From contig NQJD01000039.1 of assembly GCA_004284765.1 (NCBI GenBank), positions 1-22,726 of the forward strand: a stretch of DNA of 22,726 nt, in the 5' to 3' direction. Made by a program: the position numbers and the translations under genes. The notes under the pieces were generated by a model. It did not search any database and was not told the origin of the DNA. It saw only the letters and a program-made list of their open reading frames with translations. Within the stretch, counting starts at the first letter, position 1, and each line of letters starts with the position of its first letter. This stretch comes from Candidatus Electronema aureum (GTDB lineage Bacteria; Desulfobacterota; Desulfobulbia; Desulfobulbales; Desulfobulbaceae). Positions 1-21,465 of this stretch are shown here, piece by piece.

Positions 1-476
1 ACCCTGGTCGTGGCAGATGAAGGCACGTGGACGGTGAATGCAACAACAGGCGCGATCACCTTCACCCCGGAATCAGGCTTCACCGGCGACCCGACACCGA
101 TCACCTACACCGGCGAAGACGTGCAGGGCAATGTCTCCAATCCGGCGACAGTGACCTTGAACACCAACCCGGTGGCGAGCGACGACACGGACAGCTATAC
201 TCCGACTGTTGCCAAGACGGTGGACGTTCTGGCGAACGACACCGCCGGCGACAAGATCGTGGCGGCCACGGTGAAGATCACCACCGCAGGCGCGGCGGCG
301 GACGGCAAGACCCTGGTCGTGGCAGATGAAGGCACGTGGACGGTGAATGCAACAACAGGCGCGATCACCTTCACCCCGGAATCAGGCTTCACCGGCGACC
401 CGACACCGATCACCTACACCGGCGAAGATGCGCAGGGCAATGTCTCCAATCCGGCGACAGTGACCTTGAGTCATAC
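1..476 (+). repeat. Near-identical intragenic direct repeat. Units are 1-167 and 310-476, with a period of 309 bp (103 codons).
   Basis: The string accctggtcgtggcagatgaaggcacgtggacggtgaatgcaacaacagg... is present at nt 1 and nt 310. Only a few substitutions are visible (e.g. gaagacgtgcag vs gaagatgcgcag). Similarity ends at accttgaac / accttgagt. Confidence 0.9.
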
Positions 477-3027
477 CACTCCGACCTACGCACTGATTAG
501 CTCCTTCAAGGCGTATGTCAATGGGGACAAACAGACCGTGCTGGAATGGAAAACGGATAGCGAAGTTGGCACCATCGGTTTTCTGCTCGAAAGGTTAAAT
601 GAGCAAAGTGGCGAATATGAGTCGGTGACTCAAGACATGCTTCCGGGTATGCTTACCCCACCGCATGGTGGCACCTACCGCTTTGTTGACAAAGCGGCAA
701 TATCCGGTAAAAGCTATACATACCGAGTGATTGAAGTTGCGGTCAACAGTGAGGGTACGATTTCTGGGCCATACACAGTTCAGGCCAAGCAGCAGTTGCC
801 AGTCAACCAAGCTATGTTTGCTGACGGCCCGGAAGGATTCACCTTAGCCCAAGAGCGTCTCTCTACCAAGCAAGTACAACGCGTTGCGGTACGAGAGCAA
901 GCAGAGCAAAGTTTCTCTGCACAAGTAAAGAAAAAAACCGGTAAGGTATTGAGAATACCCGTGAGTAAAACCGGACTGGTTTCACTGACTGCTGATCAGA
1001 TCGTCGCAGCATCTGGCCTGAAGAAACAGCAGATTGTGCAAAATCTGAAGGCCAAAAAATGTTTGGTGACGTTACAGGGAAAACGAATTCCTACCCTGTT
1101 TGCCAGCGAAGGCGGTGCGCTTTGGTTCTATGGCCAAGCTCCGGCCAGAAACGATATCGGGCAGAACATCTACCGGCTTGAAATAGGTATGCAAGGTTCT
1201 GTGATGAAAGTAAATCCGCAATCAGATAACGACAGCGGTCACATCTACAGCGAGCAGTCTTTTGCTGACCGAGTAAAGGCTGAAGAAAATCATCTGCCTT
1301 TCCATCTCTATATCAACAAACCTGTGAAAGATTTCTGGGCTTGGGAATATTTGCTGGCCTCAGGAAAAGATTTTACGGTGACTCATTCCCTTGCCGCACC
1401 GAACATGTCAGGCAGTGGCAGTGCGGCAGTTGCGGTTAATCTGGTAAATATCTCCAGCCGCAATTTAGGGACTTCAGCGCCGTATAAGGTGACGATTTTC
1501 TTGAATGGTACTGATATCGGTGGAGCGGAAACCACTGCAACCGGAGATTGGCAAATCAGGAAAGAAGTGCCGGTGAGCTTGCTCCGAGAAAGCGGTAATG
1601 AGGTAAAAATTGTCTCGCAGCTGAACAGTGGGGTATCCTACTCATTGATTTATCTTGAATCCATTGAGCTGGAGTACCTGCGGAAATATCAAGCCGTGCA
1701 AGGCGAGCTGACTTTCAAGAGCGGCCATTCTAACCAAGTGACTGTAGAAGGCTTCAGCAGCGATACTGTGCTTGCACTTGATGTAACCAATCCTGATAAA
1801 CCGGTGCGGATGCGTCCGACGATTCGCCAAACGGAGTCTGGTAGCTATGCAGTGATGGTTCAGACAAAACCCAACAGCAGCTATTTCATCACCGAGAAAA
1901 CAGCGGCGACAGTGTCGCAAACAATGACCGTTGACACGCCTTCTCAGTTGCGCAGCGGCAAAAATCGGGCCGATTATCTCTTGATCGCACCGCTGCACCT
2001 GATCGACTCAGCTAAACGGCTAGCAGAACGCCGTCAGAGCCAAGGTTTGACCAGCATGGTTGTTGATATTCAAGATGTACAAGATGAATTCAGCTATGGC
2101 TTGGCGGCACCGGAGGCTGTGCATGATTTCTTGGCCTATGTGCATCAAAAATGGGAACAGGCTCCTCGTTATGTGGTACTGGTCGGAGACGGCTCCTATG
2201 ACTACCGCAATCATCTTGGCTACGGCTGGCCGCTGATACCCAGCGTGTTGGTCGCCACGCCGGAAGGTTTCTTCCCCAGTGACAACGCCTTGGCGGACGT
2301 GGTTGGCAATGACGGTCTGCCAGAATTCGCTGTAGGCAGAATTCCAGTATTTGACAAAGCTGAATTTGAGCAGTACATTGACAAAGTAATCAGCTACGAA
2401 CAGTCTGTTCATAACGGTGTCCAGAAGATAGCGGTTGTGAACGACAAGACTGACAAGGCGGCTGGTGATTTTAAAGCCAGTGCCAACTTAGTGGCCGGGT
2501 TGATGCCGGAGCAGGTTGCTGTTACTCGTTTGGATGTTGATACGCTGGGATATAGTGCTGCGGCTGACCAGATCAAAACAGCCATGCAGCAGGGAGTCGG
2601 CATACTCCATTACATCGGACACAGTTCCTTGATTGGACTTGGCAAAAGCAACTCGCTGCTGTCAGCAAGCAAGATTGATACGATGAATCCAGTCGGCCCA
2701 GCTATGCTGATGGTCAGCATGAGCTGCTCGGCAGCTAGTTTCGGTTATCCGGCCATGAATAGCATTGGCGAAAGCGCAGTGTTGCGGGCAGAAGGTGGAG
2801 CAGTCGGTTTCTTTGGCGCAACAGGTTTGTCTCTGAATCCGTTAGCCGACATCGTGACAGAAGGTTTCTATCGTAGTCTGTTTAAACCAGTAAGTCCTCG
2901 TGTCGGTGATGCAGTGCTTGAGAGTAAACGGCATTATCTACAGGTTAAGCAAGGAAGAGATGCTTATACCCTTGATATTTACAACCTGCTTGGTGATCCC
3001 GCTGTGCAGATGCCGACTCATCAGTAA
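1..3027 (+). CDS. Large surface/secreted protein, 5'-truncated by the window edge. It has tandem ~103-aa adhesin-type repeats, an Ig/FN3-like region and a C-terminal peptidase C25 (gingipain-like) domain.
   Basis: The frame is open to nt 1: codons 1-9 (TLV) continue the repeat seen again at 310. The repeat [39 protein letters not shown](V/A)[12 protein letters not shown] occurs twice, and the spacer has the cadherin/VCBS-like motif DVLANDT. The C-terminal part (YLLIAPLHL...[15 protein letters not shown]...LHYIGHSS...MSCSAASFG...LLGDPAV) resembles the C25 fold with His and Cys in the expected contexts. Stop is at 3025-3027. Confidence 0.75.
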
Positions 3028-3103: not shown

Positions 3104-3406
3104 ATGAATGTACAGTCCACAGATGTATTCCGCCGTGCAGACAACATCGTCACCCGTAAGGTGATGGATGAAACCCTGTTGGTACCTGTTTCTGGCGAGC
3201 TGGCTTCAATGGATAATCTGTACACCTTGAATGAGACTGGAGCTTTCATCTGGCAGGCAATCGACGGCACTCGCAGCTTGGCCGAAGTCGGCAAAATGCT
3301 GGAGGATCGGTATGATGCTCCGACAGAGGTGATTGAAGCAGATATGTTGGAGATTGTCAGTGGACTATCAGAAGCTGGTCTGATTATGCCTGTTACCAAT
3401 GCATAA
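3104..3406 (+). CDS. PqqD-family protein, a RiPP recognition element (peptide chaperone).
   Basis: The ~100-aa size fits the family. The pattern is typical of PqqD/RRE proteins: VTRKVMDETLLVPV...LYTLNETGAFIWQAIDGTRSLAEVGKMLEDRYDAP...IEADMLEIVSGLSEAGLI. It lies immediately upstream of a small peptide ORF and a radical SAM gene. An SD-like aaaaggtgaaaagag precedes the ATG. Confidence 0.85.
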   Translation: MNVQSTDVFRRADNIVTRKVMDETLLVPVSGELASMDNLYTLNETGAFIWQAIDGTRSLAEVGKMLEDRYDAPTEVIEADMLEIVSGLSEAGLIMPVTNA

Positions 3407-3423
3407 AAAGAGGGGGAAGAGTC

Positions 3424-3582
3424 ATGCAGAAGAAGGAAGTACAGCAGCCAGAGACGGAGCAAAACAAACGGCATTACGAAAAGCCTTCTTTGTCTGCTGT
3501 TCGGTTGTTTGCAGATATGGTTTTGCAGGTGTGCGGAAATGATACGTGCGGCCCGCCGTATCCTGATATGAGTCCAAGTTGA
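3424..3582 (+). CDS. Candidate RiPP precursor peptide 1 (52 aa).
   Basis: It is absent from the ORF track because it is under 60 aa. ATG 3424 is preceded by the purine-rich SD-like agagggggaagag. It has 52 codons, and the TGA at 3580-3582 overlaps the TTG at 3579. Translation: MQKKEVQQPETEQNKRHYEKPSLSAVRLFADMVLQVCGNDTCGPPYPDMSPS. It shares a collinear motif, Y-E-x-P-x-L-x4-LFAD-x-VL, with the peptide at 4770. It sits between the PqqD and rSAM genes. Confidence 0.7.
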   Translation: MQKKEVQQPETEQNKRHYEKPSLSAVRLFADMVLQVCGNDTCGPPYPDMSPS

Positions 3583-3593
3583 TTATAAATTTA

Positions 3594-4757
3594 ATGAAAA
3601 AGAAATCAGATACGGAATCTTCAGATTGTCTTGGCGGCGAACCAAACGATATCGCTCGTTATATTGCCAAGGCAGCAGAAGTTCGTGTTCCGCTGGCGGT
3701 TTCGTTTGAGCTAACCCGACGATGTAGTTTTCGTTGTGTTCACTGTTATCTTGGTGATCAGGAATCGATCCGTAAACACCGGCAGCAAGAGATGGATACT
3801 ACGTCAATCATCAAACTGATTGATGAAATGGCATCAGCAGGTGTTCTGTTTCTGACGGTGACCGGTGGTGATCCGATGATCCACCCTGATTTCTTAGAAA
3901 TTTATCGTTATGCAGTTCGCAGTGGCTTATTGGTGACAGTCTTCTGCAACGGCTCGCTGATCACCGATGAAATTGTTAGCACGTTCATTCAATACCCGCC
4001 AAGAGCGGTAGAAGTGACGTTGTATGGGGCAAGCCAAGCAACTTTTGAGGCAGTGACGCAACAGCTTGGTTCCTTTGCTGCTTGCATGGCAGGTGTGGAG
4101 AGGTTACGACAGGGTAAGGTACGGTTGCGGCTAAAAACGATGGTGTTGACGTTGAATCAAGCTGATCTACCGGTTCTTTGGCAGCGCGCTGAGGCAATCG
4201 ATGTGCAATTTCGGCATGACTGCTCGATCATCCCGGCTTTGGCCAACGGCGATAACGGTAGTCACAGCAATGCCGGAGATAATCTGCACGACACATTGCG
4301 CTTCCGGCTTGCGCCGGAGCAGGCGGCAGCGGCTGATTTGAGTATCACCCAAGTGAGAGAAAAATTACAGGAACGGGTTTGCATGGCTGCCCCGACAGAG
4401 ACAGGACAACCGTCAAGCAAACTCTACCGCTGCGGCGCAGGCCGGTCATCTTGTCACATTACGCCGTATGGAAAAATGCAGCCCTGCCTGATCACCCTCC
4501 AGCCTTCTTTTGACATTACCGCAGGCAAGGAAGCGTTTCAGGCAGCTTGGCAGAGCATCAGCAGGCTGATTCCTGAGCAGGAAGCGGGAGCGGGTTTCTC
4601 CTGCAACCGCTGCAAGGACAGATCGCTCTGCACGGGTTGTCCAAGCAATTTTTCAGCAGAAACAGGCAACGCGGAACAGGCTGCGGATTTTTATTGCCAG
4701 TATGCCGCCAGCCGCAGAGAAAAATCCGCAAGCCACGAAGCGGCAGTATCATCATAA
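3594..4757 (+). CDS. Radical SAM enzyme with a C-terminal SPASM-type auxiliary Fe-S domain (peptide-modifying maturase).
   Basis: CSFRCVHCY matches the CxxxCxxC radical SAM motif, and VTGGDPMIHPDF is GGE-like. The C-terminal cysteine clusters YRCGAGRSSCHITPYGKMQPC and FSCNRCKDRSLCTGCP are typical of SPASM domains. The start is ambiguous: ATG 3594 (MKKKSD) or TTG 3579, which overlaps the precursor stop. Confidence 0.9.
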   Translation: MKKKSDTESSDCLGGEPNDIARYIAKAAEVRVPLAVSFELTRRCSFRCVHCYLGDQESIRKHRQQEMDTTSIIKLIDEMASAGVLFLTVTGGDPMIHPDFLEIYRYAVRSGLLVTVFCNGSLITDEIVSTFIQYPPRAVEVTLYGASQATFEAVTQQLGSFAACMAGVERLRQGKVRLRLKTMVLTLNQADLPVLWQRAEAIDVQFRHDCSIIPALANGDNGSHSNAGDNLHDTLRFRLAPEQAAAADLSITQVREKLQERVCMAAPTETGQPSSKLYRCGAGRSSCHITPYGKMQPCLITLQPSFDITAGKEAFQAAWQSISRLIPEQEAGAGFSCNRCKDRSLCTGCPSNFSAETGNAEQAADFYCQYAASRREKSASHEAAVSS

Positions 4758-4769
4758 CCAAGGGAAAAA

Positions 4770-4937
4770 ATGATGAAAGAATTGAACAGTAATGTTGAGT
4801 TAAGCAAAGGTAAAGGCGAGAAGGTGCCTTACGAAAGTCCTCAACTCAAAGTAATCAAATTATTTGCTGATCAAGTGTTAGGTGGTAGCTGCTTCGGCTC
4901 AGTGGTGGATTGCGGCGGTTCTAAGGATCTTAGTTAA
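4770..4937 (+). CDS. Candidate RiPP precursor peptide 2 (55 aa), a paralog of the peptide at 3424.
   Basis: It is absent from the ORF track. The ATG at 4770 has an SD-like aagggaa just upstream. It has 55 codons and ends at TAA 4935-4937. Translation: MMKELNSNVELSKGKGEKVPYESPQLKVIKLFADQVLGGSCFGSVVDCGGSKDLS. The leader motif and its spacing match peptide 1 (Y to LFAD = 10 residues in both). It has two Cys and a C-terminal Ser. Confidence 0.7.
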   Translation: MMKELNSNVELSKGKGEKVPYESPQLKVIKLFADQVLGGSCFGSVVDCGGSKDLS

Positions 4938-4983: not shown

Positions 4984-5856
4984 ATGCTATTAGGTGGTTT
5001 TTCCATTAAAATAATGGATGACAGTAATATTCCATGCAAGCAACATCACTTGGTAGATGTTTTTTCATGTCCCGTTAAAAAGAAAAATGTTCTTTGTCAG
5101 GCTATAGAGCTTTCGCTTAAGGAGCTGATGCAAATCAACTTTCCTGCCAGCGAGAGGAATATATTATATGCAGACTGTAGGGTGACTCTCTGTAGAACAG
5201 AAACAGATTCATTCAGGCTTTTATGCCTGAATGAATCTGGAAATGACACATTGTGGAATCTAAATTTTGATTCAAATTTTTCTCAATTTGAATACGGCCT
5301 TTCCCACGAAGCAATAGAACAGGGCGACCTTATTCAATTAGCTTTTAATCGGTTTCTTCTTCAGCATACCTTCATCAATCACCACGGCCTGATCATTCAC
5401 GCCGCAGGTGGTTCTATTCACGGCAAGGGCATGGTCTTTCCCGCCGTCTCCGGCACTGGCAAATCAACACTCAGCCATCTGCTGCTGCCGCATCCTGAAA
5501 ATCAGCTTTTCAGCGAAGAGCGGATCATCATGCGCCGGACGGATGACGGTTGGCATTTGTGGGGCACTCCGTGGAAAGGAACCGGCGTGATCGCCCGCAA
5601 TGAATCAGCACCGCTGAATGCCTTAGTTTTTCTCAGTCAGGCCCCGGAAACAAAAATCTCAAAACTGCCGCCCTCCGCCGCCCTCCGCCGTCTGCTGGAG
5701 ACGGTCTCCATTCCTTGGTACAGTCAAGAGTGGACCGACAAGGGCCTATCCGTCTGCGAATCCCTGCTGCGCGACATTCCTGTATTTGAGCTGGCATTCC
5801 GTCCTGATCAAACTGCGGTGCAAGCCGTGGCTGATTTAGCTGCTTCATTAGACTGA
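4984..5856 (+). CDS. HPr kinase/phosphorylase C-terminal-domain-like P-loop protein (putative peptide Ser kinase).
   Basis: HAAGGSIHGKGMVFPAVSGTGKSTLSHLL resembles the HprK P-loop region (G-x-S-G-x-G-K-S). The ORF-track start (GTG 4882) would overlap the precursor-2 gene. The first ATG after that gene's stop is 4984, but the true start is uncertain. Confidence 0.7.
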   Translation: MLLGGFSIKIMDDSNIPCKQHHLVDVFSCPVKKKNVLCQAIELSLKELMQINFPASERNILYADCRVTLCRTETDSFRLLCLNESGNDTLWNLNFDSNFSQFEYGLSHEAIEQGDLIQLAFNRFLLQHTFINHHGLIIHAAGGSIHGKGMVFPAVSGTGKSTLSHLLLPHPENQLFSEERIIMRRTDDGWHLWGTPWKGTGVIARNESAPLNALVFLSQAPETKISKLPPSAALRRLLETVSIPWYSQEWTDKGLSVCESLLRDIPVFELAFRPDQTAVQAVADLAASLD

Positions 5857-5873: not shown

Positions 5874-6356
5874 ATGAGCCACTCGGTTATCGGTATTCGC
5901 GAACCCGGCGCATTAGATTTAGTGCAGTCCCTACTTCGGCAGGGTTTTAGTGTTCACATCCGAGTTTCTGGTGACTCCATGAAGCCGCTGCTTCGGGGTG
6001 GTGAGCTTGTTGAAGTGGCACCTTTAAGAGATGCCCGTCCCAAACTTGGCGATATTCTTTTTGTCCGCAGTCGTCAAAACACTCCGCTTGTCCATCGCTT
6101 AATTTGGCGACGTAACCAAAACGGCATTTCTCACCTATTGACCAAGGGTGATGCCTGTGCAGGTTTTGACGGTTTTATTCCTGCGAACAAGGTGATAGGC
6201 CGCGTTGATCGGATTATAATTGCCGATCAAAAATCAATCAGCCTGCAAGTACCGCTGATGCGGCTACGAGCTGTTTTGTCTGTCAGCCGTGTTTTACTTG
6301 CTCATGCTTGGCGCAAATTGAACGCCTATAAAAAAGAATACCCGCCGAGTATATAA
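5874..6356 (+). CDS. S24/S26-family serine peptidase (signal-peptidase-I/LexA-like fold). It is a putative leader peptidase.
   Basis: SGDSMKPLLRGGELVEV matches the catalytic-Ser motif G-x-S-M-x-P of S24/S26 peptidases. A downstream LLTKGDA supplies a candidate general-base Lys. SD gagg lies at 5867-5870. The gene is 17 nt after the preceding gene. Confidence 0.7.
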   Translation: MSHSVIGIREPGALDLVQSLLRQGFSVHIRVSGDSMKPLLRGGELVEVAPLRDARPKLGDILFVRSRQNTPLVHRLIWRRNQNGISHLLTKGDACAGFDGFIPANKVIGRVDRIIIADQKSISLQVPLMRLRAVLSVSRVLLAHAWRKLNAYKKEYPPSI

Positions 6357-6361
6357 CTTCC

Positions 6362-6391
6362 TTGCAATTTTTGCATGTTCTGTCTTATCAT
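6362..6391 (+). promoter_or_regulatory. Sigma70-like promoter candidate for the gene at 6434.
   Basis: ttgcaa (6362-6367), an 18-nt spacer, then tatcat (6386-6391). It lies in the AT-rich gap between the peptidase stop and ATG 6434. This is pattern only. Confidence 0.3.
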
Positions 6392-6433
6392 AGAATCTAT
6401 GAAAAATATTTTAACTCTCACGGAAAAACAAAC

Positions 6434-7825
6434 ATGAAAAATCAAGCTGAATGCCACTTTTCTTGGCTTGTAGCCATTCTGTTCGCTGCGCTTTCCATTT
6501 TTCATCCTCTGACGGTGAAAGCGCAGGTGTCGTCCGGTACCATAACAGGCACCGTGACGACTGTAGATACAGTTCCTCTGGCAAGTCTGGCGGTGGGTGT
6601 GTACCGTGCTGATGATGAAAGTACTCGGCTGAAAGCCGTACGGACAAACACTGCGGGTATTTTTACGCTGACGGGTCTGCCAGCGGGTAATTATAAAATA
6701 AAATTCTTCACTACTGGTATTAATTATGTCGGAGGATGGTATAAGCAAAATACTTCCCCTCCAGCCTCAGCGGTAGCCACATTTGGCGAAGGTAATATCA
6801 TTACGCTGACCTCAACAGCCGGAGCTGATGTAGGGGAGACACGACTTGATCTCGGTTTGCAGATCAAAGGAAAAGTGAATGATACCTCCTCGCCAAGTAA
6901 TCCTATTGCTGGAGTCTATGTTCAGGCATATCGCAACGGAGTTTGGGAAAGAACTTCTGATGCTGCCACCATCATTGCTGATGGCTCATACATCATTAGC
7001 GGCCTGAGAGCAGGTGACTACACCATACGTTTTTGGGCGTATCAAACCAGCTATACTACGGAATGGTATTCTTCAACTACTCCAACAAACACTGTTCCTG
7101 ATGCTACCAGTGCTGCTTCTGTGGCGGCAGGGAGTATTAACATAAACGCCCAGCTATCTACAGGCGGTAACATTCTTGGCACGGTTTACGATAAGACAGG
7201 GACGGTACCTGTTGTCGGCGCATTAGTGACTGTTTATGATAATGTATCTCCTTACACGTTTAGAGGCTTCACCACCACGTTAGCAACAGGCACATACACA
7301 GTGCGAGGTCTTCCTCTTACAGGAAATTATCTTGTCCAGTTTTATGAAAAATATGTCAATAACGTGGGGACGGGCCTAACTGAATGGTACAACGATAAGT
7401 CTGATAGGGCCAGTGCAGCGGCTGATTTTGGCAGTGTTGTTGTCATTAACCAAGCAACAGGATACATCGACAATATTAATGCTACGCTTGATCGTGGACC
7501 TATTTCTGGCAAGGTCACCTACAAGACAGGCTCGCCTGTCGTAGGCATGTTGATTAGTGTATATGACAGCAATCAAGTTTTGAAACTATCTACAACCACC
7601 GATACCAAAGGACAGTATATCACTGGGGAACTGCCCGCAGGAACTTATAAAGTGCAGTTTGGTACTGCCAGTTGGTATAATGGAAAAGATAATTTTAACG
7701 AGGCTAATGCAGTGCAGGCGGGAGCTGCTGGAATCAATGCTATCATAGAACAGCCGACACTCCTCTTCCATGTCTACAATATCCTCCTTATGAAAAAACA
7801 TTGCACGGCAGCTGATTGCCAATAA
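6434..7825 (+). CDS. Secreted protein with four carboxypeptidase-regulatory-like / Cna-B-like beta-sandwich repeats.
   Basis: The start at ATG 6434 gives a signal-peptide-like N-terminus (MKNQAECHFSWLVAILFAALSIFHPLTVKAQV). There are four ~100-aa repeats of the type G(T/K)V...G.PV.GA.V.VY......T...G.Y...GLPAG.Y.V.F....Y..EWY. The longer ORF-track start (6362) lacks any support. Confidence 0.7.
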   Translation: MKNQAECHFSWLVAILFAALSIFHPLTVKAQVSSGTITGTVTTVDTVPLASLAVGVYRADDESTRLKAVRTNTAGIFTLTGLPAGNYKIKFFTTGINYVGGWYKQNTSPPASAVATFGEGNIITLTSTAGADVGETRLDLGLQIKGKVNDTSSPSNPIAGVYVQAYRNGVWERTSDAATIIADGSYIISGLRAGDYTIRFWAYQTSYTTEWYSSTTPTNTVPDATSAASVAAGSININAQLSTGGNILGTVYDKTGTVPVVGALVTVYDNVSPYTFRGFTTTLATGTYTVRGLPLTGNYLVQFYEKYVNNVGTGLTEWYNDKSDRASAAADFGSVVVINQATGYIDNINATLDRGPISGKVTYKTGSPVVGMLISVYDSNQVLKLSTTTDTKGQYITGELPAGTYKVQFGTASWYNGKDNFNEANAVQAGAAGINAIIEQPTLLFHVYNILLMKKHCTAADCQ

Positions 7826-7852
7826 TCTCGTTTCACTTATTTCTACAGATTT

Positions 7853-7889
7853 ATGCTGGTAGGATATTTTCCTATCAGCATATTTTTTT
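7853..7889 (+). terminator. Rho-independent terminator.
   Basis: atgctggtagga (7853-7864) pairs with tcctatcagcat (7870-7881) at 11 of 12 positions. A run of seven T follows at 7883-7889. Confidence 0.7.
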
Positions 7890-10310: not shown

Positions 10311-10832
10311 TCATATTGGCAGAGCAGCTTTCACCGCTTCAACAAAAAGCCCGGCTAAAACATTCGGTGTTACGTCGGCAATCATTGATTTCACCGAATC
10401 AGTGAGACTTTTCTTCTTTTCAGCGGGAAGATCGGACTTATCTATAACTTCCATGAGGTGTTGAATAATTTTCTCCGCATCCGCATTGTTGGTGATATTG
10501 ATATCACGTCCAGCAAAATTCAGAGTTCCAGAAGCATTGTTCAGAACTCCTATATTAAACACTTGCGAAGACTGCTCGTTCTGTCCTTCCATGAATTTCC
10601 TCCCTTCCTTGGTGATCTCAATACCAAGAATGTATAATATCATGCCACGATTTTCACGCATGTTGCCCCAACTGGGTGTGGCTTCAATAAAACCTCTCTG
10701 TTTCAGCTCCATCAGGAAGTTACGAAAATCTTGCTCTTTACCATTTGGCACCTCAAAATTTTTTTCTTCCAATGGGTTAGGAAAAGACTCTATCAACTTC
10801 TGCAACACATTACGGGTTCTTTCTTTGTCCAT
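10311..10832 (-). CDS. Hypothetical protein. It may have an N-terminal winged-helix (DUF2513-like) domain. It is an AT-rich single-gene cassette.
   Basis: The 173-aa ORF has coding-like composition. FLMELKQRGFIEATPSWG...ILGIEITKEGRKFMEG loosely resembles DUF2513-type wHTH proteins. By eye it is much more A/T-rich than its flanks. I recognise no catalytic motif. Confidence 0.55.
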   Translation of the reverse strand: MDKERTRNVLQKLIESFPNPLEEKNFEVPNGKEQDFRNFLMELKQRGFIEATPSWGNMRENRGMILYILGIEITKEGRKFMEGQNEQSSQVFNIGVLNNASGTLNFAGRDINITNNADAEKIIQHLMEVIDKSDLPAEKKKSLTDSVKSMIADVTPNVLAGLFVEAVKAALPI

Positions 10833-10877
10833 TTCAGTTTATTACCATTGTTATGATCGGTTGTCAAAAAACGGCAT

Positions 10878-11570
10878 TCATTTTACTGCTTGCTGCAAAT
10901 AGTTCACCGGATCTTTCATCCCCGCCTCAGCAAAGCCCTTCAGCCGCAGAATGCAGGCATCGCAATGCCCGCAAGCCAAGCCCTGCACCGGATCGTAGCA
11001 GCTGTGCGTCAGCGAGTAATCCACGCCCAGCCGCATCCCGACCTCAATAATTTCCTTCTTGCTCAATTCAATCAGCGGGGCGTGCAAGCGGAACGGGCTG
11101 CCGGTGCTGCCTGCTTTGGTGCCGAGATTCACCGCCAGCTCAAAGGCGCGGAGGAAATCCGGGCGGCAGTCCGGGTAGCCGCTGTAATCCACCGCGTTGA
11201 TGCCGAGAAAGATGTCGGCCGCGCCGAGCACCTCCGCCCAAGCGACTGCCTGAGAAAGAAAGATGATGTTACGGGCAGGCACGTAGGTCACAGGAATGCC
11301 CGCGCTGATTTCTTCCGCCTTACGGTCTTTCGGCACTTCGATGGCCGATGTCAAGGCCGAGCCGCCGATCAGGCCCAAATCCAGCCGGAGAATCAGATGC
11401 TGCTCGGCCCGCATCGCCTTGGCGATGACAGCCGCCCGCTCCAGCTCAATATCCTGCTTCTGGCCGTAGCGGAAGCTGAGGCAATGGCACTGAAAGCCAC
11501 GGCTCCGGGCAATCGCTAAAACCGTACTGGAATCCAGCCCGCCGCTGAGAAGAACAACTGCTTTTTTCAT
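10878..11570 (-). CDS. queC: 7-cyano-7-deazaguanine synthase QueC.
   Basis: [19 protein letters not shown] is the PP-loop SGGxDS motif. The C-terminal Zn cysteines are SCYDP...[11 protein letters not shown]. The start is taken at ATG (rc) 11568-11570. The 40-codon upstream extension in the ORF track is not QueC-like. Confidence 0.93.
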
Positions 11571-11662
11571 GGAGAAATTTTCGGCACAATCTGGTTTGAT
11601 ATTGTCAGAAACGCATTTATCACCTATCATAGATAGCTGAATCAGCGCATCATACCGCTCTT

Positions 11663-14803: not shown

Positions 14804-15925
14804 ATGGAAAATATTATGAGCCTTACAGAGCAGATCAATAAAAACTCAGCAACGGTAAAGACACAATCGTATTCAATGTCGCTGGGTGAAATGGCTGCGA
14901 TGTACCAAGCCGGTGAACTCGAACTGCACCCAGAATTTCAGCGTTTCTTTCGCTGGACACCTGAACAGAAGTCGCGGCTTATTGAGTCGATCCTGCTTGG
15001 CATTCCTGTGCCGCCCGTATTTGTGGCAGAAAGAAGGTTGGATGCAAAATGGGATGTGATTGACGGGCTGCAACGGCTTTCAACGATATTAGAACTCATG
15101 GGTGAACTTCAAGGAGAAGATGGCAACAAGAAAGAACCGTTGCAGCTCACGCGAACACATTATCTGCCTGATTTGGAGGGAATGTACTGGTCTCATGAAG
15201 ATGAAAGTAAATGCCTTCCAGAGTTTGCTCAGATAAAGATAAAACGTGCTCGTATTGATGTCAATATCGTCAGCAGTACAAGCGATGAGGTGGTGAAATA
15301 CGAAGTTTTTCAACGTTTGAACACAGGAGGCGCAAAGGCGACTGACCAAGAGGTGCGCAATTGTCTTCTTGTAATGATTAATAACAGCTACTTCAACTGG
15401 ATGAAAGGTCTAAGTGAAAATGAATCGTTTCAGAACACTCTCTCGCTGACGGATCGTGCGCTCGCTGAGGCTTTCGACATGGAACTTGTAGCTCGATATC
15501 TCGTCATGATTCAAAAAGAACCAGACAAACTCAAGAAAATCGATGAACTTGGAACGTATTTGAATGAGGAATGTATAGCGCAAGCGAAAGATTCAGCATT
15601 AGACAGGGATGCGATTGCAAAGAGCTTTTTTGAAACATTCACATTCCTTGCGAATGAGCTGAAAGAAAACGCTTTCCGCAGGTTTGATATGAAACGGCAG
15701 TGCTATAGCGGCCCGATGCTTGTTTCAATTTTTGAGGTTGTCGCTGTGGGATTGGGGCATCGGTTGTTGAATGGGGGAGCACTTCCTGACCAAGCCTCTT
15801 TTGCGGAAAAACATCGCTCGTTGTGGGACGAGCTTGGAAAAACATCATTTGTCGGATCGGGTGTGCGTTCCTCAACTCGGATACAAGAGACAATTCGCTT
15901 TGGGCGGGAGTGGATTGCACGGTGA
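14804..15925 (+). CDS. DUF262 (ParB/GmrSD N-terminal-like) domain protein without a DUF1524 nuclease domain.
   Basis: LHPEFQRFFRWTPEQKSRLIESILLGIPVPPVFVAE...WDVIDGLQRLSTILE matches the DUF262 signature (FQR..vW ... DGQQRLTT). VFQRLNTGGAKATDQEVRNCLL is also present. I see no H-x-x-P His-Me finger C-terminal domain. Confidence 0.85.
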   Translation: MENIMSLTEQINKNSATVKTQSYSMSLGEMAAMYQAGELELHPEFQRFFRWTPEQKSRLIESILLGIPVPPVFVAERRLDAKWDVIDGLQRLSTILELMGELQGEDGNKKEPLQLTRTHYLPDLEGMYWSHEDESKCLPEFAQIKIKRARIDVNIVSSTSDEVVKYEVFQRLNTGGAKATDQEVRNCLLVMINNSYFNWMKGLSENESFQNTLSLTDRALAEAFDMELVARYLVMIQKEPDKLKKIDELGTYLNEECIAQAKDSALDRDAIAKSFFETFTFLANELKENAFRRFDMKRQCYSGPMLVSIFEVVAVGLGHRLLNGGALPDQASFAEKHRSLWDELGKTSFVGSGVRSSTRIQETIRFGREWIAR

Positions 15926-16572
15926 AGATTCGAGCCGCACAGGAACTCATTAATTTCCTTAGCGAGAGAAAACAAAATCGTAAAAGGGAGCTGATATCGC
16001 TCTCGCAGGATTTATCGCCGCCAAAGGGCCATCCGACGGCGCATACATGCAAGGCCGCTGTCGTTCTTGCCTATGCTCACTGGGAAGGATTTGTGAAAGA
16101 GGCAGCTCAAGCCTATGTTAATCTTGTGGCCCATAAATCTAAAAGATTAGACGCATTGGCTCTCAGTTTCCAAGCTCTGGTGTTCCGTCAAGAACTACTT
16201 GCAGCCCAATCTGCAACCCGTCGGATACAACAGCATCTGTCCCTTACAAAACGTTTCACTGACGATATCACGTCAAGCTGCAAAATTGATCATGACAGAG
16301 CAATAGACACAGAATCGAATCTTAACGCTGAGGTCTTTGAAAACATCTGTCTATCTGTTGGACTGGACTATCAAACTTACTGGGCTGTGCACGGGCATCG
16401 AATGGATGATCTTGTAGCAAACCGTTGCGCAATCGCACACGGTGAAATGTCGACACCTGAAGATAAATATGCCAGAGAAGCAGTAAATTTCGTTATTAAG
16501 GCTATAGACCAATTCTCAACCGATATCGAAAACGCTGCCACGCTTGAGCAGTATCTCAGGAAAACGAGCTGA
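15922..16572 (+). CDS. HEPN-domain protein (RiboL-PSP / MAE_28990-like family), a putative RNase effector.
   Basis: The start GTG 15922 overlaps the DUF262 stop (gGTGA, 4-nt coupling). The protein is helical and carries the R-x4-H motif in VANRCAIAHGE near the C-terminus. Size (216 aa) and DUF262 adjacency fit that family as I recall it. The ORF-track start at 15823 is an in-gene overlap and is unlikely. Confidence 0.65.
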   Translation: MKIRAAQELINFLSERKQNRKRELISLSQDLSPPKGHPTAHTCKAAVVLAYAHWEGFVKEAAQAYVNLVAHKSKRLDALALSFQALVFRQELLAAQSATRRIQQHLSLTKRFTDDITSSCKIDHDRAIDTESNLNAEVFENICLSVGLDYQTYWAVHGHRMDDLVANRCAIAHGEMSTPEDKYAREAVNFVIKAIDQFSTDIENAATLEQYLRKTS

Positions 16573-16659
16573 ATTACGAGGATTATCATTGAGGAAGGCG
16601 AAGGCAGATTGGGGCTTGGCTGTTGGCCAAACTCCGCTTTCAATTCGCGGGCTGGAACA

Positions 16660-16896
16660 ATGAGAATCGCGCAAGTCACACCAAAGGAAAATGGATTGCT
16701 TCACATTGTTGCCGAAGACGGACGCAATGGTGTTTTTGATGTGCGGCCATATTTGAATTCTGAGGCGTTCAGGCCGCTGCAAGACTGGCATGAATTTTCC
16801 TGTATCATCAACGGCAGCTATTTTATTGAGTGGAAATGCGGAGCTGATCTGTCAGCAGACACCATTGAAGCTAAATGGCAAATATATGCCGCTTGA
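16660..16896 (+). CDS. DUF2442-family small protein.
   Basis: MRIAQVTPKENGLLHIVAEDGRNGVFDVRPYLNSEAF...FIEWKCGADLSADTI fits the ~80-aa DUF2442 pattern (v..v.p..d..L.v.f.dG....d......). ATG 16660 is preferred over the 16609 start. Confidence 0.6.
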   Translation: MRIAQVTPKENGLLHIVAEDGRNGVFDVRPYLNSEAFRPLQDWHEFSCIINGSYFIEWKCGADLSADTIEAKWQIYAA

Positions 16897-16905
16897 TTTG
16901 ATTGC

Positions 16906-17312
16906 GCTGCGGCAGCCGTCGGACAGATAAGCCATCCATCGTTCAGGCAGGCCGCGCAGTATTTCCTGCGCCTCGATGCAAACTTGCTGCATGGCGTTTC
17001 AGGCTTGGGATGCGGCATCTGCTGGACAGGCAAAGCAGCCGTATTGCAAATAAACCGCTTGAAATTTTCGCATCTCATGGTAAAAATGATGTGCGGCATT
17101 TCAAATATGCGACGCGGCAGCCGTCGTTCAGGCAGCTTATCTGTCTGACAGACGGGCCGCCGAAATTTCAGCGCAGCGGCGCAAACTTGCTTCAGGGCAT
17201 TCTCAGTTTGCAGCGCGGCATCTGTCGTTCCGATGCGCCGCCGGTCTTTCGGGCCAGCCGCCTGAAGCGCAGGTGCCGCGCCGCAACGCTGAACTGCCGC
17301 ATCTGACTATCC
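16906..17312. repeat. Diverged tandem duplication (2 units of ~203-205 bp) in a GC-rich non-coding spacer. It contains a 15-bp inverted repeat.
   Basis: Three anchors recur at a constant offset: gcggcagccgtcg (16909 and 17114), gcaaacttgct (16978 and 17181) and gcggcatctg (17012 and 17215). gtcggacagataagc (16918-16932) is the reverse complement (14 of 15) of gcttatctgtctgac (17135-17149). Confidence 0.75.
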
Positions 17313-17338
17313 CATCTTAACCGCAGAAGGAGCGCAGC

Positions 17339-17962
17339 ATGGCGACATTTCCTGTCCGCGAGGCGGACATCATGGCACTGGCGCAAAGCATCATCGCCGG
17401 GATGACGGAAAATCCAGATTATCCTTCGCCGCCGCTTTCGCCAACAGAGCTACGCGCCCGGCTGGATGCGTTCAGCGGATCAAGCGACGCGCAGGCATCG
17501 GCCCAGTCTGCGGCGCAGCAGGCCACGGAAACCAAGCGCACGGATTTGGAAGAGCTGATTGCGGGCATGAAGGCCGCCATGCTGCATTATGCCGAAGACG
17601 CGGTGCGCGGCAATGATGCCAAGCTGGCCGCTCTGGGCTGGAGCGGTCGCGCGCCCCGCACGCCGCATGTGCCGCAGCTGCCCGGCCAGCCGCGCAATGT
17701 CAGGGCGCAGCAGCAGGGCGAGGGCAGCATGACGCTGGCGTGGGATGAGGCTGAGAACGGCGACGCTGCTGCCTGTTACAAGGCCGAACGCCGCAGCCTG
17801 AACAACGGCGTGTGGAGCGCATGGCAGATCGTCGGCACAGCGGTCAGCACGAGCATCGCGCTGTCCGGCCAGCCGCGCGGCAACACGCTGGAATACCGCA
17901 TCATCGCCATCAACAACGCGGGCGAAAGCCTGCCGAGCAACACCGCGACGGCAGTGCTGTGA
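17339..17962 (+). CDS. Paralog P2: full-length helical N-domain plus a C-terminal fibronectin type III-like domain.
   Basis: The N-terminus FPVREADIMALAQSIIAGMTENPDYPSPPLSPTELRARLDAF is homologous to P1 and P3. The C-terminus PGQPRNVRAQQQGEGSMTLAWDEAENGDAAACYKAERRS...LEYRIIAINNAGESLPSN is a typical FN3 pattern. SD gaaggag lies upstream. Composition is GC-rich. Confidence 0.8.
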   Translation: MATFPVREADIMALAQSIIAGMTENPDYPSPPLSPTELRARLDAFSGSSDAQASAQSAAQQATETKRTDLEELIAGMKAAMLHYAEDAVRGNDAKLAALGWSGRAPRTPHVPQLPGQPRNVRAQQQGEGSMTLAWDEAENGDAAACYKAERRSLNNGVWSAWQIVGTAVSTSIALSGQPRGNTLEYRIIAINNAGESLPSNTATAVL

Positions 17963-18028
17963 ATTTTTGTGAATTTTTTCCGGCAGAAAAATTTGCAGTC
18001 GAATTATCTGCCCCCTTCTTTTTCGCAG

Positions 18029-18075
18029 AGCACGTGTGCTTTTGCATCTCAAACACACGTGTTTTCATTTTTTAA
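18029..18075 (+). terminator. Hairpin plus T-rich tail between P2 and the methyltransferase gene. It is a terminator or an operator.
   Basis: cacgtgtg (18031-18038) pairs with cacacgtg (18054-18061). The loop is cttttgcatctcaaa, followed by ttttcatttttt. Each arm contains the palindrome CACGTG. It lies inside the unsupported N-terminal extension of ORF 17969. Confidence 0.5.
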
Positions 18076-18088
18076 TTCATCGAGTATT

Positions 18089-18955
18089 ATGCCTTCCTGT
18101 TTAAACCCCATTGAAACATCTGATTCAACTATAAACAATCTCGATGAAAAAAGATGGAGCGTTTACAACGGAGATGCAGTTCAAGTTTTAAAAACTCTTC
18201 CAGATAATTCATATAATTGCATAGTCACTTCTCCGCCGTATTACTGGCTTCGAGATTATGGAACAGATGAGCAAATCGGAAAAGAAGATACTGTAGAGCA
18301 ATACATTTTTTCTGTATGCGCTGTTTTTGATGAAATTTATAGAGTAATGAAAGATGATGGATTAGTTTTTATCAATCTTGGCGACACCTATTATTCAGGA
18401 AAAGGACAATCTCATGGCGTTGACAAAAAGAGCAGAAAAAGACGCTTTGGCTTAAGAGCTGTTGATAAAAGCGGAGGGCTTGATATCGGGATTAAACCAA
18501 AATCATTGATAGGTATTCCTTGGAGAGTCGCTTTGGAAATGATGAAGCGAAATTGGACACTTCGGAGTTCAATTATTTGGTATCGTAAATATTCGCTTCC
18601 AGAATCGGTGAAGGATCGCCCGAAAAGAAGTTACGAACATATATTTATGTTCGTAAAAAATCGTAAATATTATTTTAATCAAAGTGCATTTGGTGCCGAT
18701 GAGCAAGGAGATGTGTGGACAATTGTTCCCCGGCCAAAATCGGCGCACTTGGGAACAGCACCGTATCCCGATGAGCTTGTGCAGCGATGTCTTGATATGG
18801 GTTGTCCGCCTGGCGGTTCGGTTTTAGATCCGTTCGCGGGCAGCGGCACAACCTTGCGTGTTGCTGTGCAGTCCGGTCGTTTTGCCACAGGGATTGATAA
18901 CAATCCAGAATTTTGTCAATTTATGTCTAGTGAATTGCAAAGGATTTCAAAATGA
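18089..18955 (+). CDS. DNA methyltransferase, beta-class N4-cytosine/N6-adenine (N6_N4_Mtase family).
   Basis: Motif IV is IVTSPPYY near the N-terminus, and motif I is VLDPFAGSGTT near the C-terminus. That is the circular permutation of beta-class amino-MTases. The start is taken at ATG 18089. The stop overlaps the next gene's ATG (ATGA at 18952-18955). Confidence 0.9.
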   Translation: MPSCLNPIETSDSTINNLDEKRWSVYNGDAVQVLKTLPDNSYNCIVTSPPYYWLRDYGTDEQIGKEDTVEQYIFSVCAVFDEIYRVMKDDGLVFINLGDTYYSGKGQSHGVDKKSRKRRFGLRAVDKSGGLDIGIKPKSLIGIPWRVALEMMKRNWTLRSSIIWYRKYSLPESVKDRPKRSYEHIFMFVKNRKYYFNQSAFGADEQGDVWTIVPRPKSAHLGTAPYPDELVQRCLDMGCPPGGSVLDPFAGSGTTLRVAVQSGRFATGIDNNPEFCQFMSSELQRISK

Positions 18956-20865: not shown

Positions 20866-21465
20866 ATGATTCCTGTGCTTGAACAGTCTGAACCGGCAGA
20901 CTTTGATGCGAAGGTGCGGCAGAAAGGGCTGGCGTTTCTGCGTAAGAAAGGCATCGCGCTGGATCAGCCTCTTCCGGACAAGGCTGATATTGCCCCGTAT
21001 TGGCGTGACTGTCTTGATGATTTGCATTCACTGTATCATGGCTGCTGCGCTTATCTCGCCATTTTCATCGAGCGTGTCACTGGAGACGCATCTGTTGATC
21101 ATTTCATAGCCAAATCTAAACAGGCTGATCTTGCGTATGAATGGAGCAATTATCGTCTTGCCTGCCTGACGATGAACAGCCGCAAGCGGAACTATGATGA
21201 TGTTCTTGATCCGTTCTCTGTCCAATCTGGCTGGTTTCATCTTGAATTAGTCAGCGGACGCATTTATCCGAATTCTAATTTGCCATCGAACACAAAGAAG
21301 CAGATAGAAGAAACGATCGAACGCCTGCATTTGGATGACGCAGGAAACAGAGAAATACGGTCTCGCCATTATTATGAATATGCTGCAAAAGGATACCCGA
21401 CTGACTATCTCAAAACAAGATCGCCATTTGTTTATACAGAAGCACTGCGGCAAGGTCTTTTGTAA
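20866..21465 (+). CDS. TIGR02646/PtuB-like HNH-type nuclease homolog with a degenerate zinc-cysteine set.
   Basis: The ATG immediately follows the ATPase stop (tgaATG). CCAYLAIFIERVTGDASVDHFIAKSKQADLAYEWSNYRLACLTMNSRKRNYD follows the family pattern C.YCE...(D/I)H..P......W.N...AC..CN..K. However, the second Cys of each pair is replaced (CAYL, CLTM). Confidence 0.65.
   Translation: MIPVLEQSEPADFDAKVRQKGLAFLRKKGIALDQPLPDKADIAPYWRDCLDDLHSLYHGCCAYLAIFIERVTGDASVDHFIAKSKQADLAYEWSNYRLACLTMNSRKRNYDDVLDPFSVQSGWFHLELVSGRIYPNSNLPSNTKKQIEETIERLHLDDAGNREIRSRHYYEYAAKGYPTDYLKTRSPFVYTEALRQGLL

Follow-up and report, generated by a model that had tools for sequence, protein, structure and literature searches.

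The window analyzed here is a complete contig, 22,726 bp in length, of a metagenome-assembled genome (MAG) of Candidatus Electronema aureum, a freshwater cable bacterium. It encodes, in this order and on the plus strand, a protein with a C25 peptidase domain, a PqqD protein, the small open reading frame (ORF) P1, a radical S-adenosylmethionine (rSAM) enzyme with a SPASM domain, a second small ORF, P2, a ScmC-family protein, and an S24/S26-like peptidase. The present analysis concerns P1 and P2, which we consider rather probably to be genuine precursor peptides, two paralogues of one family, that belong to an uncharacterized pathway for peptides that are made on ribosomes and modified after translation (RiPPs), one run by the conserved cassette around them, along the lines of the mechanism proposed below. 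The first-pass annotation had called both ORFs unannotated. Public records already carry them as "hypothetical protein" (CDV28_1393 and CDV28_1395, respectively), and they are therefore uncharacterized rather than unannotated.

Precursor peptides and their family

P1 (3424–3582) encodes 52 amino acids and is 100% identical to family member P0001. The leader is assigned to residues 1–34 (3424–3525), ending in ...KRHYEKPSLSAVRLFADMVL, and the core to residues 35–52 (3526–3579), QVCGNDTCGPPYPDMSPS, followed by the stop codon at 3580–3582; the full translation is MQKKEVQQPETEQNKRH-YEKPSLSAVRLFADMVL-QVCGNDTCGPPYPDMSPS. P2 (4770–4937) encodes 55 amino acids and, from its second Met, corresponds to family member P0008. 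Its leader spans residues 1–37 (4770–4880), ending in ...KVPYESPQLKVIKLFADQVL, and its core residues 38–55 (4881–4934), GGSCFGSVVDCGGSKDLS, with the stop codon at 4935–4937 and the full translation MMKELNSNVELSKGKGEKVP-YESPQLKVIKLFADQVL-GGSCFGSVVDCGGSKDLS. Shine-Dalgarno-like sites precede both ORFs, GAGGGGG at 3410–3416, 7 nt 5′ of the ATG, for P1 and AAGGGA at 4760–4765 for P2, the latter being better spaced to the second ATG at 4773, which would yield 54 amino acids, than to the ATG at 4770. The coordinates and translations of the two ORFs agree exactly with those of the first-pass annotation, and the Cys spacings that it gave, C-x4-C in P1 and C-x6-C in P2, are borne out.

When P1 and P2 are compared by BLASTP, the alignment covers the leader only (12 of 29 positions identical, E = 8e-07), in which the two peptides have the block YExPxLxxxxLFADxVL in common. 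The strict motif Y..P.L....LFAD.VL has two matches in the six-frame translation, as compared to 2e-7 expected from composition, and none across 300 shuffles.

Four loci, two in Ca. Electronema and two in Desulfobulbaceae MAGs, came out of a scan of reference genomes that was anchored on the rSAM enzyme, and small ORFs with the same leader and differing two-Cys cores are present at all four. A nine-peptide profile run against a word-indexed protein database retrieved 67 proteins, many of them named from Electronema and Electrothrix species, and HMMER, run exhaustively with a profile of 64 sequences, gave 159 clusters at 50% identity (E ≤ 1e-3), 45 of them at E ≤ 1e-10. The weakest match listed (E = 6.7e-4) is still flanked by rSAM and ScmC genes in a full cassette. 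One homologue is tagged "RiPP" in UniProt, and no Pfam or NCBIfam model matches P1, P2, or any member tested, including distant members with three Cys residues.

The leader is kept and the core varies, and the architecture of a leader followed by a hypervariable core, which had been read from P1 and P2 alone, is found throughout the family. Conservation was evaluated over 188 unique members. The leader consensus, KxxYEKPxLxxVxLFADQVL, is nearly invariant: the Tyr and the Pro are present in all members, position +5 is mostly Leu, Val, or Ile, and the entropy does not exceed 0.8 bits at K(−3), K(+2), L(+10), A(+12), D(+13), V(+15), and L(+16). The columns past +16 have entropies of 2.9–3.9 bits, with the exception of the Cys at +19/+20; for the leader columns taken together the range is 0–0.8 bits, and for those of the core it is 3.2–3.9 bits. 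For the 20-codon leader block, compared among 12 DNA-level homologues, pS is 0.82 (that is, synonymous sites are saturated) and pN is 0.33, which shows that the encoded protein is conserved and not the nucleotide sequence. The family is real and under selection.

The cores are about 16–31 amino acids long and carry two Cys in 132 members, three in 47, one in 8, and four in 1. In 187 of the 188 members, the first six residues of the core include a Cys, which forms a near-invariant position 2–4 residues past the leader, and in the two-Cys cores the two residues are spaced by x4 to x12. Ser is the C-terminal residue of 127 of the 188 members (68%), to be compared with a Ser content of 12.9% in the core composition, and 40 members end in "GS". 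Two subtypes can be distinguished, a cable-bacterial one of the form ...LFADQVL-x(1-3)-C-x(4-12)-C-tail and a more distant one of the form ...L[VA]ADEVL-xxGCK...C..C...GS. The Asp just before the second Cys that the first-pass annotation pointed out is present in both P1 and P2 but does not extend to the family, as 31 of the 132 two-Cys members have an Asp in the two positions that precede the second Cys, and 6 have it in the directly preceding one. For the family as a whole, we reject a freyrasin-like Cys-to-Asp crosslink, which had been suggested from P1 and P2, since neither Cys has a conserved Asp nearby and the spacing of the Cys residues is variable.

A subgroup of P1-type members with a single Cys (P0010, P0048, P0067, P0224, and P0235) has cores of the form x-C-[DN]-P-x(3-5)-G-D...[LI][SA]F, in which an intramolecular disulfide is impossible; this subgroup may represent a distinct product type.

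A peptide at the position of P2, directly 3′ of the rSAM gene, is found in every locus examined. Orthologues at the position of P1, 5′ of the rSAM gene, are found in the loci L001–L003 and are absent from L004 and from the distant loci, which have the downstream copy only. The copy 5′ of the rSAM gene is an Electronema-lineage duplication.

The conserved cassette

The peptides belong to a conserved cassette of six parts: a PorU-like C25 protein, a PqqD-family RiPP recognition element (RRE), an rSAM/SPASM enzyme, one or more precursors, a ScmC/HprK-like kinase, and a SipW/Sec11-type peptidase. The conservation of this set extends over cable bacteria, Gammaproteobacteria, Chromatiales, and Myxococcota. 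Homologues of the rSAM enzyme with at least 47% identity occur throughout Electronema and Electrothrix, and every named genome of these two genera that surfaced in the searches carries the cassette, the next named relatives being in other phyla. The next-closest rSAM homologues, at about 40% identity, come from MAGs of Gammaproteobacteria, Chromatiales, and Myxococcota, and their loci contain C25, PqqD, and rSAM genes, a YxKPxL peptide right after the rSAM gene, a ScmC gene, and a gene for a peptidase of 160–200 amino acids. In L009, the C25 and peptidase genes are relocated downstream, still within the cluster. The earlier pairing of the precursors with an rSAM/SPASM enzyme is borne out, as the peptides adjoin a discrete PqqD protein and this enzyme in every full-length locus examined. 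The first-pass annotation mentioned neither the HprK-like kinase nor the SipW/Sec11-type peptidase homologue, the PorU-like C25 protein, or the C-terminal Ser.

The protein at 3104–3406, previously recognized as PqqD, matches the Pfam PqqD model with E = 2.7e-17 and constitutes a discrete RRE. Its matches to the NCBIfam models of PqqD, the lasso PqqD chaperone, and ScmD are all below the cutoffs, and PqqD proper, the lasso B1 chaperones, and ScmD are all at about the same distance from it. The gene is located directly 5′ of the rSAM gene or of a precursor in every locus. Discrete recognition proteins of the lasso type bind the YxxPx[L/V/I] motif, as does the recognition protein of the linear polyphosphorylated peptides (LPP) (PMC13381572; PMC10368454). 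Given the invariant Tyr and Pro, the dominance of Leu, Val, and Ile at +5, and the adjacent discrete PqqD protein, the lasso-like character attributed to the YxxPxL motif has held up, and lasso-style leader recognition by PqqD is supported at the level of the sequences.

The rSAM/SPASM enzyme (3594–4757, Pfam Radical_SAM) starts with an ATG at 3594; an alternative TTG start at 3579 overlaps the stop codon of P1. The CX3CX2C motif (C44/C48/C51) is invariant in 40 homologues, as are four of the seven C-terminal SPASM Cys residues (C280, C298, C346, and C349), the other three (C337, C340, and C368) being conserved in at least 90% of them. The AlphaFold2 (AF2) model of the enzyme has a predicted local distance difference test score (pLDDT) of 92.6, and its best fold matches are PqqE, SkfB, CteB, SuiB, and anSME, with PqqE as the top match in the Protein Data Bank (PDB) by both fold and sequence. 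An assignment of the chemistry from the fold search was considered and rejected, as all of these enzymes are similar.

The kinase homologue, an HprK-like P-loop kinase of the ScmC family, is encoded at 4984–5856, with a likely ATG start at 4984 in an ORF that opens at 4882. The NCBIfam models of HprK-related kinase B (3.6e-08), kinase A (1.2e-06), and ScmC (6.9e-06) match it below their cutoffs, and the precomputed Pfam annotation PF27840 (ScmC) is found on nearly all of 120 homologues. A sequence-only search of the PDB with the ScmC profile was dominated by generic P-loop matches, HprK reaching just E = 0.003, and the assignment was decided by the fold search with the AF2 model (pLDDT 90.8), which matches PEP (phosphoenolpyruvate) carboxykinase and HprK/P (1knx, 2qmh, and 1kkl). 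PEP carboxykinase and HprK/P have the same P-loop kinase fold. Among 57 sequences, H139 is conserved in 56, K160 in 57, [DE]178 in 49, and [DE]179 in 57. These residues match the His-Lys-Asp-Asp motif that was found by mutagenesis to be essential in the lasso-tailoring kinases (PMC9266682), which suggests that the kinase is catalytically intact.

In P0425 (376 amino acids), a ScmC kinase-like domain and a PqqD domain are naturally fused, which is consistent with a recognition protein that presents the peptide to the kinase. At 5204–5239, in the N-terminal part of the ScmC-like gene, there is an inverted repeat, perfect over 15 bp and with 6 nt in the loop, CAGATTCATTCAGGC-ATAAAA-GCCTGAATGAATCTG, which scored as terminator-like on the minus strand.

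The candidate leader peptidase (5874–6356) is a homologue of signal peptidase I (SpI) of the SipW/Sec11 (archaeal/ER) type. The NCBIfam model sigpep_I_arch (TIGR02228) gives it 46.6, as compared to a cutoff of 51.85 that the L009 orthologue passes with 54.6, and a profile search of the PDB places SEC11C/SEC11A first (2.6e-9). S35 (GxSMxP), H74 (xHRx), and D99 are invariant, and the distances of 39 residues from Ser to His and 25 from His to Asp are the same as those of the S29/H68/D93 residues of LppS, the LPP leader peptidase (PMC13381572). The rSAM enzyme, the kinase, and the peptidase all look catalytically intact, as judged from these conserved residues. The "−3/−1 small residue" rule of signal peptidases, tried for locating the cleavage site, fits the three-Cys subtype (A/G/S-x-G before the Cys) but not the cable-bacterial peptides. 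A double-glycine leader with a C39 transporter was rejected in view of the fact that GG often starts P2-type cores and does not start P1-type ones, and that the cassette has no C39 transporter.

Of the C25 protein (10–3027), a large one that is secreted or located at the surface, the window has the 3′ part, the 5′ end being cut by the contig end; it contains CshA/Big_9 repeats and a C-terminal PorU-like Peptidase_C25 domain (Pfam E = 6e-73). The NCBIfam model of PorU, the sortase of the type IX secretion system, scores 198 bits, below its cutoff of 420. The best solved structure is PorU 6za2 (E = 6e-13), with which the catalytic dyad of His (IGHS) and Cys (SMSC) is aligned. In the window, as in each of L001–L009, the gene adjoins the cassette, and full-length homologues have N-terminal signal peptides. 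The Myxococcota C25 protein of L007 (2828–7687) ends in ...GGCQSVPSVTWWAVALGIFALRYRRKGSQG, a tail that we take to resemble a sorting signal of the MYXO-CTERM/PEP-CTERM type and that supports a cell-surface location of the C25 partner. At 10–650, two near-identical adhesin-type CshA/Big_9 repeats of about 100 amino acids open the protein in the window, and they also yield mirrored spurious ORFs in other frames. In L005/L006, the C25 gene is separated from pqqD by a 114-aa ORF (5088–5432) that repeats the tail at the C-terminus of the C25 domain (...DIYDLLGDPVTIMK) and is probably a duplication remnant or a frameshift.

Downstream of the peptidase, a secreted protein with four CarboxypepD_reg repeats (Pfam) is encoded at 6362–7825. 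It is the last gene before the terminator-like hairpin at 7852–7882, the only signal above background in a promoter and terminator scan of the window. As similar sequence is found only in L001 and L003, this protein is, by its distribution, a lineage-specific addition outside the conserved cassette, limited to a part of the Electronema loci. It has a sub-threshold match to NikL, a subunit of a nickel/cobalt energy-coupling factor (ECF) transporter (42.5 bits, with a cutoff of 100), which probably reflects a shared fold only and is mentioned because nickel-sulfur chemistry has been discussed for cable bacteria.

In L009, which comes from a Joint Genome Institute (JGI) metagenome, extra genes are present between ScmC and C25, one for a CxxCxxCC-domain protein (PF03692) and the other a 44-aa ORF with a double-glycine-like motif, ...LDNVAGG-AKKTKEY. 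About 6.5 kb upstream and on the other strand, in L009 only, there is an ATP-binding cassette (ABC) transporter with a C39 peptidase together with a HlyD-like partner. The stretches of L009 concerned are 1–2679 (minus strand), 10385–11092, and 11448–11582, and these genes may represent a second peptide system or an export route. Farther along the window, a run of genes resembling a defense island (14804–21465) encodes GmrSD_N (DUF262), RiboL-PSP/MAE_28990 HEPN, an N6/N4 DNA methylase, and an AAA_15/AAA_21 ATPase. This run has no relation to the peptide cassette.

Comparison with known systems

Among the nearest parallels are the linear polyphosphorylated peptides of Bacillota, which are produced by LppA/B/K/S (Popov et al., Nat Commun 2026, PMC13381572). 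In the LPP precursors, a conserved leader, YxxPxVLxHQxIxFETxxS, is followed by variable C-termini, and LppS cuts the leader off only if it is presented by LppB (PMC13381572). The authors describe SpI-like peptidases as new to RiPP pathways and LPP as restricted to Bacillota, and their text mentions neither radical SAM enzymes nor proteobacteria (PMC13381572). The cassette described here resembles LPP in its discrete RRE, its HprK-like kinase, and the use of an archaeal-type (SipW-like) signal-peptidase homologue, with identical Ser/His/Asp spacing, as a candidate leader peptidase, as well as in the Y-x-x-P-x-[L/V] leader followed by a hydrophobic block, the hypervariable C-terminal part, and the presence of 1–3 precursors per cluster. 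It differs in that an rSAM/SPASM enzyme is always present, together with a PorU-like C25 protein, whereas the nucleoside triphosphate (NTP) transferase and the MsbA-like exporter of LPP are absent from every cassette examined. Moreover, the leaders have only the YxxPx[LV] part in common, as the present one continues as xxVxLFADQVL and that of LPP as HQxIxFET, the cores are short and Cys-bearing, and the hosts are Desulfobulbaceae, Gammaproteobacteria, and Myxococcota.

The phosphorylated lasso peptides of the paeninodin type (PadeK, ThcoK, SyanK, PsmK, and BsfK) are similar in having a YxxPxL leader, a PqqD-like B1 protein, a conserved C-terminal Ser, and an HprK-like kinase with the His-Lys-Asp-Asp motif that acts on the linear precursor. 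These kinases (poly)phosphorylate the conserved C-terminal Ser of the linear precursor (PMC9266682; PMC10368454). Here, in contrast, the cyclase is replaced by an rSAM enzyme, there is no Thr at −2, the conserved block ending in D-Q-V-L, and no Asp/Glu pattern for ring formation is apparent. Neither a B2 (transglutaminase-like) protease nor a C (Asn-synthetase-like) macrolactam synthetase is present in the window or in L005–L010, the only Asn_synthase-like match in the window being QueC, and a lasso peptide pathway was rejected on account of the missing B2 and C genes in the window.

With the sactipeptide and ranthipeptide systems (AlbA, SkfB, CteB, and PapB), the cassette shares an RRE-dependent rSAM/SPASM maturase with an SkfB/CteB-like fold and Cys-containing cores. 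The RRE is a separate protein here and an N-terminal domain there. Most of the present cores have 1–3 Cys residues, the maturase reaches none of the curated cutoffs, the Asp that serves freyrasin as an acceptor is not conserved, and the kinase, the signal-peptidase homologue, and the C25 protein are unknown in those classes.

The bioinformatically defined SynChlorMet (Scm) and GeoRSP systems (TIGR04248–04251 and TIGR04302–04303) likewise combine a PqqD-like protein, rSAM/SPASM enzymes, and a ScmC-family protein (PF27840), with two rSAM enzymes as compared to one in the present cassette. The NCBIfam scores (bits/cutoff) are 25.6/125 for ScmC, 22.3/100 for ScmD, 63.6/400 for ScmE, 68.2/400 for ScmF, and 63.5/400 for the GeoRSP rSAM enzyme. 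A match is given by the broader Pfam family PF27840 (ScmC) alone. On these scores, the window cassette is a sister system of SynChlorMet/GeoRSP and not a member. The mycofactocin and PQQ pathways (MftB/MftC and PqqD/PqqE) also use a discrete PqqD-family chaperone and an rSAM/SPASM enzyme on a small peptide. Their cores, however, are conserved, following the logic of a cofactor, whereas those found here are hypervariable, with no Gly-Val-Tyr or Glu/Tyr motif, ends that are mostly Ser, and scores below the cutoffs. Membership in the SynChlorMet, GeoRSP, mycofactocin, PQQ, AlbA, SkfB, or PapB families was rejected because the NCBIfam scores are far below cutoff.

A literature search for the combination of HprK, radical SAM, and precursor peptide found no report, and searches on cable bacteria with rSAM, PqqD, or C25 and on SynChlorMet or GeoRSP found nothing relevant. 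A comparative genomics paper on cable bacteria does not mention the cassette genes (PMC11976967).

Proposed pathway, alternatives, and meaning

In the pathway that we propose, the PqqD protein would bind the leader through KxxYEKPxL, as homology and the identity of the motif suggest, in the same way as the lasso B1 proteins and LppB recognize YxxPx[L/V]. The RRE-bound peptide would then be presented to the rSAM/SPASM enzyme, which would act at or through the Cys located 2–4 residues past the leader, a site that corresponds roughly to the modified Ser3 of the LPP cores. The kinase and the peptidase would likewise receive the peptide from the PqqD protein. Our guess for the likeliest product is a thioether from the Cys to a backbone or side-chain carbon, a sactionine-like linkage for which no conserved acceptor would be needed. 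The HprK-like kinase would phosphorylate a Ser of the core, for which the C-terminal Ser, the target of the homologous lasso kinases, is the best candidate, and its presence in 68% of the family fits such a role. The SpI-like peptidase would cut the leader off near the end of ...LFADQVL, as LppS does, and the product would finally meet the extracytoplasmic PorU-like C25 protein as a substrate, ligand, or inhibitor. By analogy, the experimental precedent of an RRE, an HprK-like kinase, and an SpI-like peptidase acting together on a YxxPxV leader (PMC13381572) supports this pathway.

A number of observations weigh against this proposal. The rSAM enzyme, like its orthologues, passes no curated NCBIfam cutoff, those of the sactipeptide and ranthipeptide maturase models included, and its top scores (bits/cutoff), 110.6/265 for MftC, 108/500 for AhbD, and 100/500 for NirJ2, are to enzymes that are not thioether synthases. 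StsB (65/625), AlbA (62.7/850), and PapB (53.7/340) score lower, as does PqqE, in the range of 54–65 bits. The fold search does not discriminate between the rSAM chemistries, no acceptor residue is conserved in the cores, and, with 8 single-Cys and 47 three-Cys members, a uniform ring topology cannot be drawn. As to the later steps, the C-terminal Ser is missing in 32% of the members, LppK polyphosphorylates Ser3 of the core and not the C-terminus (PMC13381572), and the cassette contains no exporter, the C25 partner being nonetheless secreted. The rSAM enzyme belongs to no curated family, and its chemistry is unreadable from homology.

We have also considered that the peptides are rSAM substrates in which the Cys is not a thioether donor. 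The enzyme would instead catalyze a C-terminal oxidative decarboxylation of the MftC/AhbD kind, the formation of a C–C or C–O crosslink, or an epimerization, and the Cys residues would form disulfides or bind metals. We regard this as unlikely. In its favor, MftC, with an alignment over the full length, AhbD, and NirJ2 outscore StsB, AlbA, and PapB, the C-terminal residue is conserved (Ser, often in "GS"), and a Cys spacing that varies from x4 to x12 is typical of disulfide loops. On the other hand, the position of the first Cys is essentially invariant, even in the eight one-Cys members, which are incapable of an intramolecular disulfide. In addition, the scores that favor MftC are far below the cutoff and their ranking shifts between orthologues, StsB being second for L009, and the C-terminus is not the Tyr of the mycofactocin precursors.

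Another explanation, to which we give a low probability, is that the cassette is essentially an LPP-type phosphopeptide system whose exported peptide is processed or attached to the envelope by the PorU-like C25 protein, or regulates or inhibits it. This idea is compatible with the thioether and phosphorylation pathway above, as it addresses function and not chemistry. It draws on the linkage of the C25 gene to the cassette in the window and in L001–L009, which persists after the rearrangement in L009, as well as on the alignment of the His/Cys dyad with PorU, the signal peptides, and the C-terminal tail of the Myxococcota protein. It is opposed by the lack of an exporter in the cassette and by the lack of a recognizable PorU-type C-terminal-domain signal in the 50–60-aa peptides, while hypervariable cores are hard to square with a single conserved protease active site.

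A lanthionine-like route, in which the kinase phosphorylates a Ser, elimination yields dehydroalanine, the Cys adds to it, and the rSAM enzyme performs a separate tailoring step, is in our judgment very improbable. A phosphorylation-elimination route is used by the class III and IV lanthipeptide synthetases, and a kinase, Cys residues, a Ser-rich core (12.9%), and a conserved C-terminal Ser do co-occur here. The cassette, however, lacks homologues of a phospholyase or a cyclase, the Ser that the homologous lasso and LPP kinases act on keeps a stable (poly)phosphate, and the rSAM/SPASM enzyme, the most conserved partner, would be left unexplained. Finally, the notion that P1 and P2 are chance ORFs or regulatory leader peptides, which their short lengths (52 and 55 amino acids) and the absence of a Pfam or NCBIfam model match might invite, is effectively refuted by the two occurrences of the motif against 2e-7 expected, the 159 homologous clusters that always lie beside PqqD, rSAM, and ScmC genes where the contig is long enough, the codon-level purifying selection on the leader, and the Shine-Dalgarno-like sites before both ORFs.

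Returning to the pathway that we favor, in which the peptides are modified at Cys and phosphorylated, the system is best classed as an uncharacterized rSAM-dependent, RRE-guided RiPP family, of which many exist. A bolder possibility, which we consider doubtful, is that it represents a new RiPP class, in which a recognition-kinase-peptidase module of the lasso/LPP type is combined with an rSAM/SPASM enzyme, and the Cys-modified, phosphorylated peptide is passed to a PorU-like surface transpeptidase and covalently processed or anchored at the envelope. As the most speculative extension, cable bacteria may have an envelope or periplasmic chemistry of their own, for example metal sites with sulfur ligands, in which the thiol-bearing peptide takes part; the hypervariability of the cores speaks against a fixed role as a cofactor.

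These results turn at least 159 clusters (50% identity) of "hypothetical proteins", for which there is no Pfam or NCBIfam model and for which no paper was found, into a testable biosynthetic pathway. They extend beyond Bacillota the trio of an RRE, an HprK-like kinase, and a SipW-like peptidase, which was described in 2026 and thought to be restricted to that phylum, and they join it to radical-SAM chemistry, a modular reuse of lasso-type leader recognition by enzymes of an unrelated class. In the searches made, the strict linkage to a PorU-like C25 surface protein has no precedent among RiPP clusters. Once the chemistry is known, the hypervariable cores of 16–31 residues on a fixed leader would constitute a natural scaffold for peptide engineering. 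For the cable bacteria themselves, the conservation of the cassette across the group provides a concrete target, and the biochemistry of their envelope attracts wide interest.

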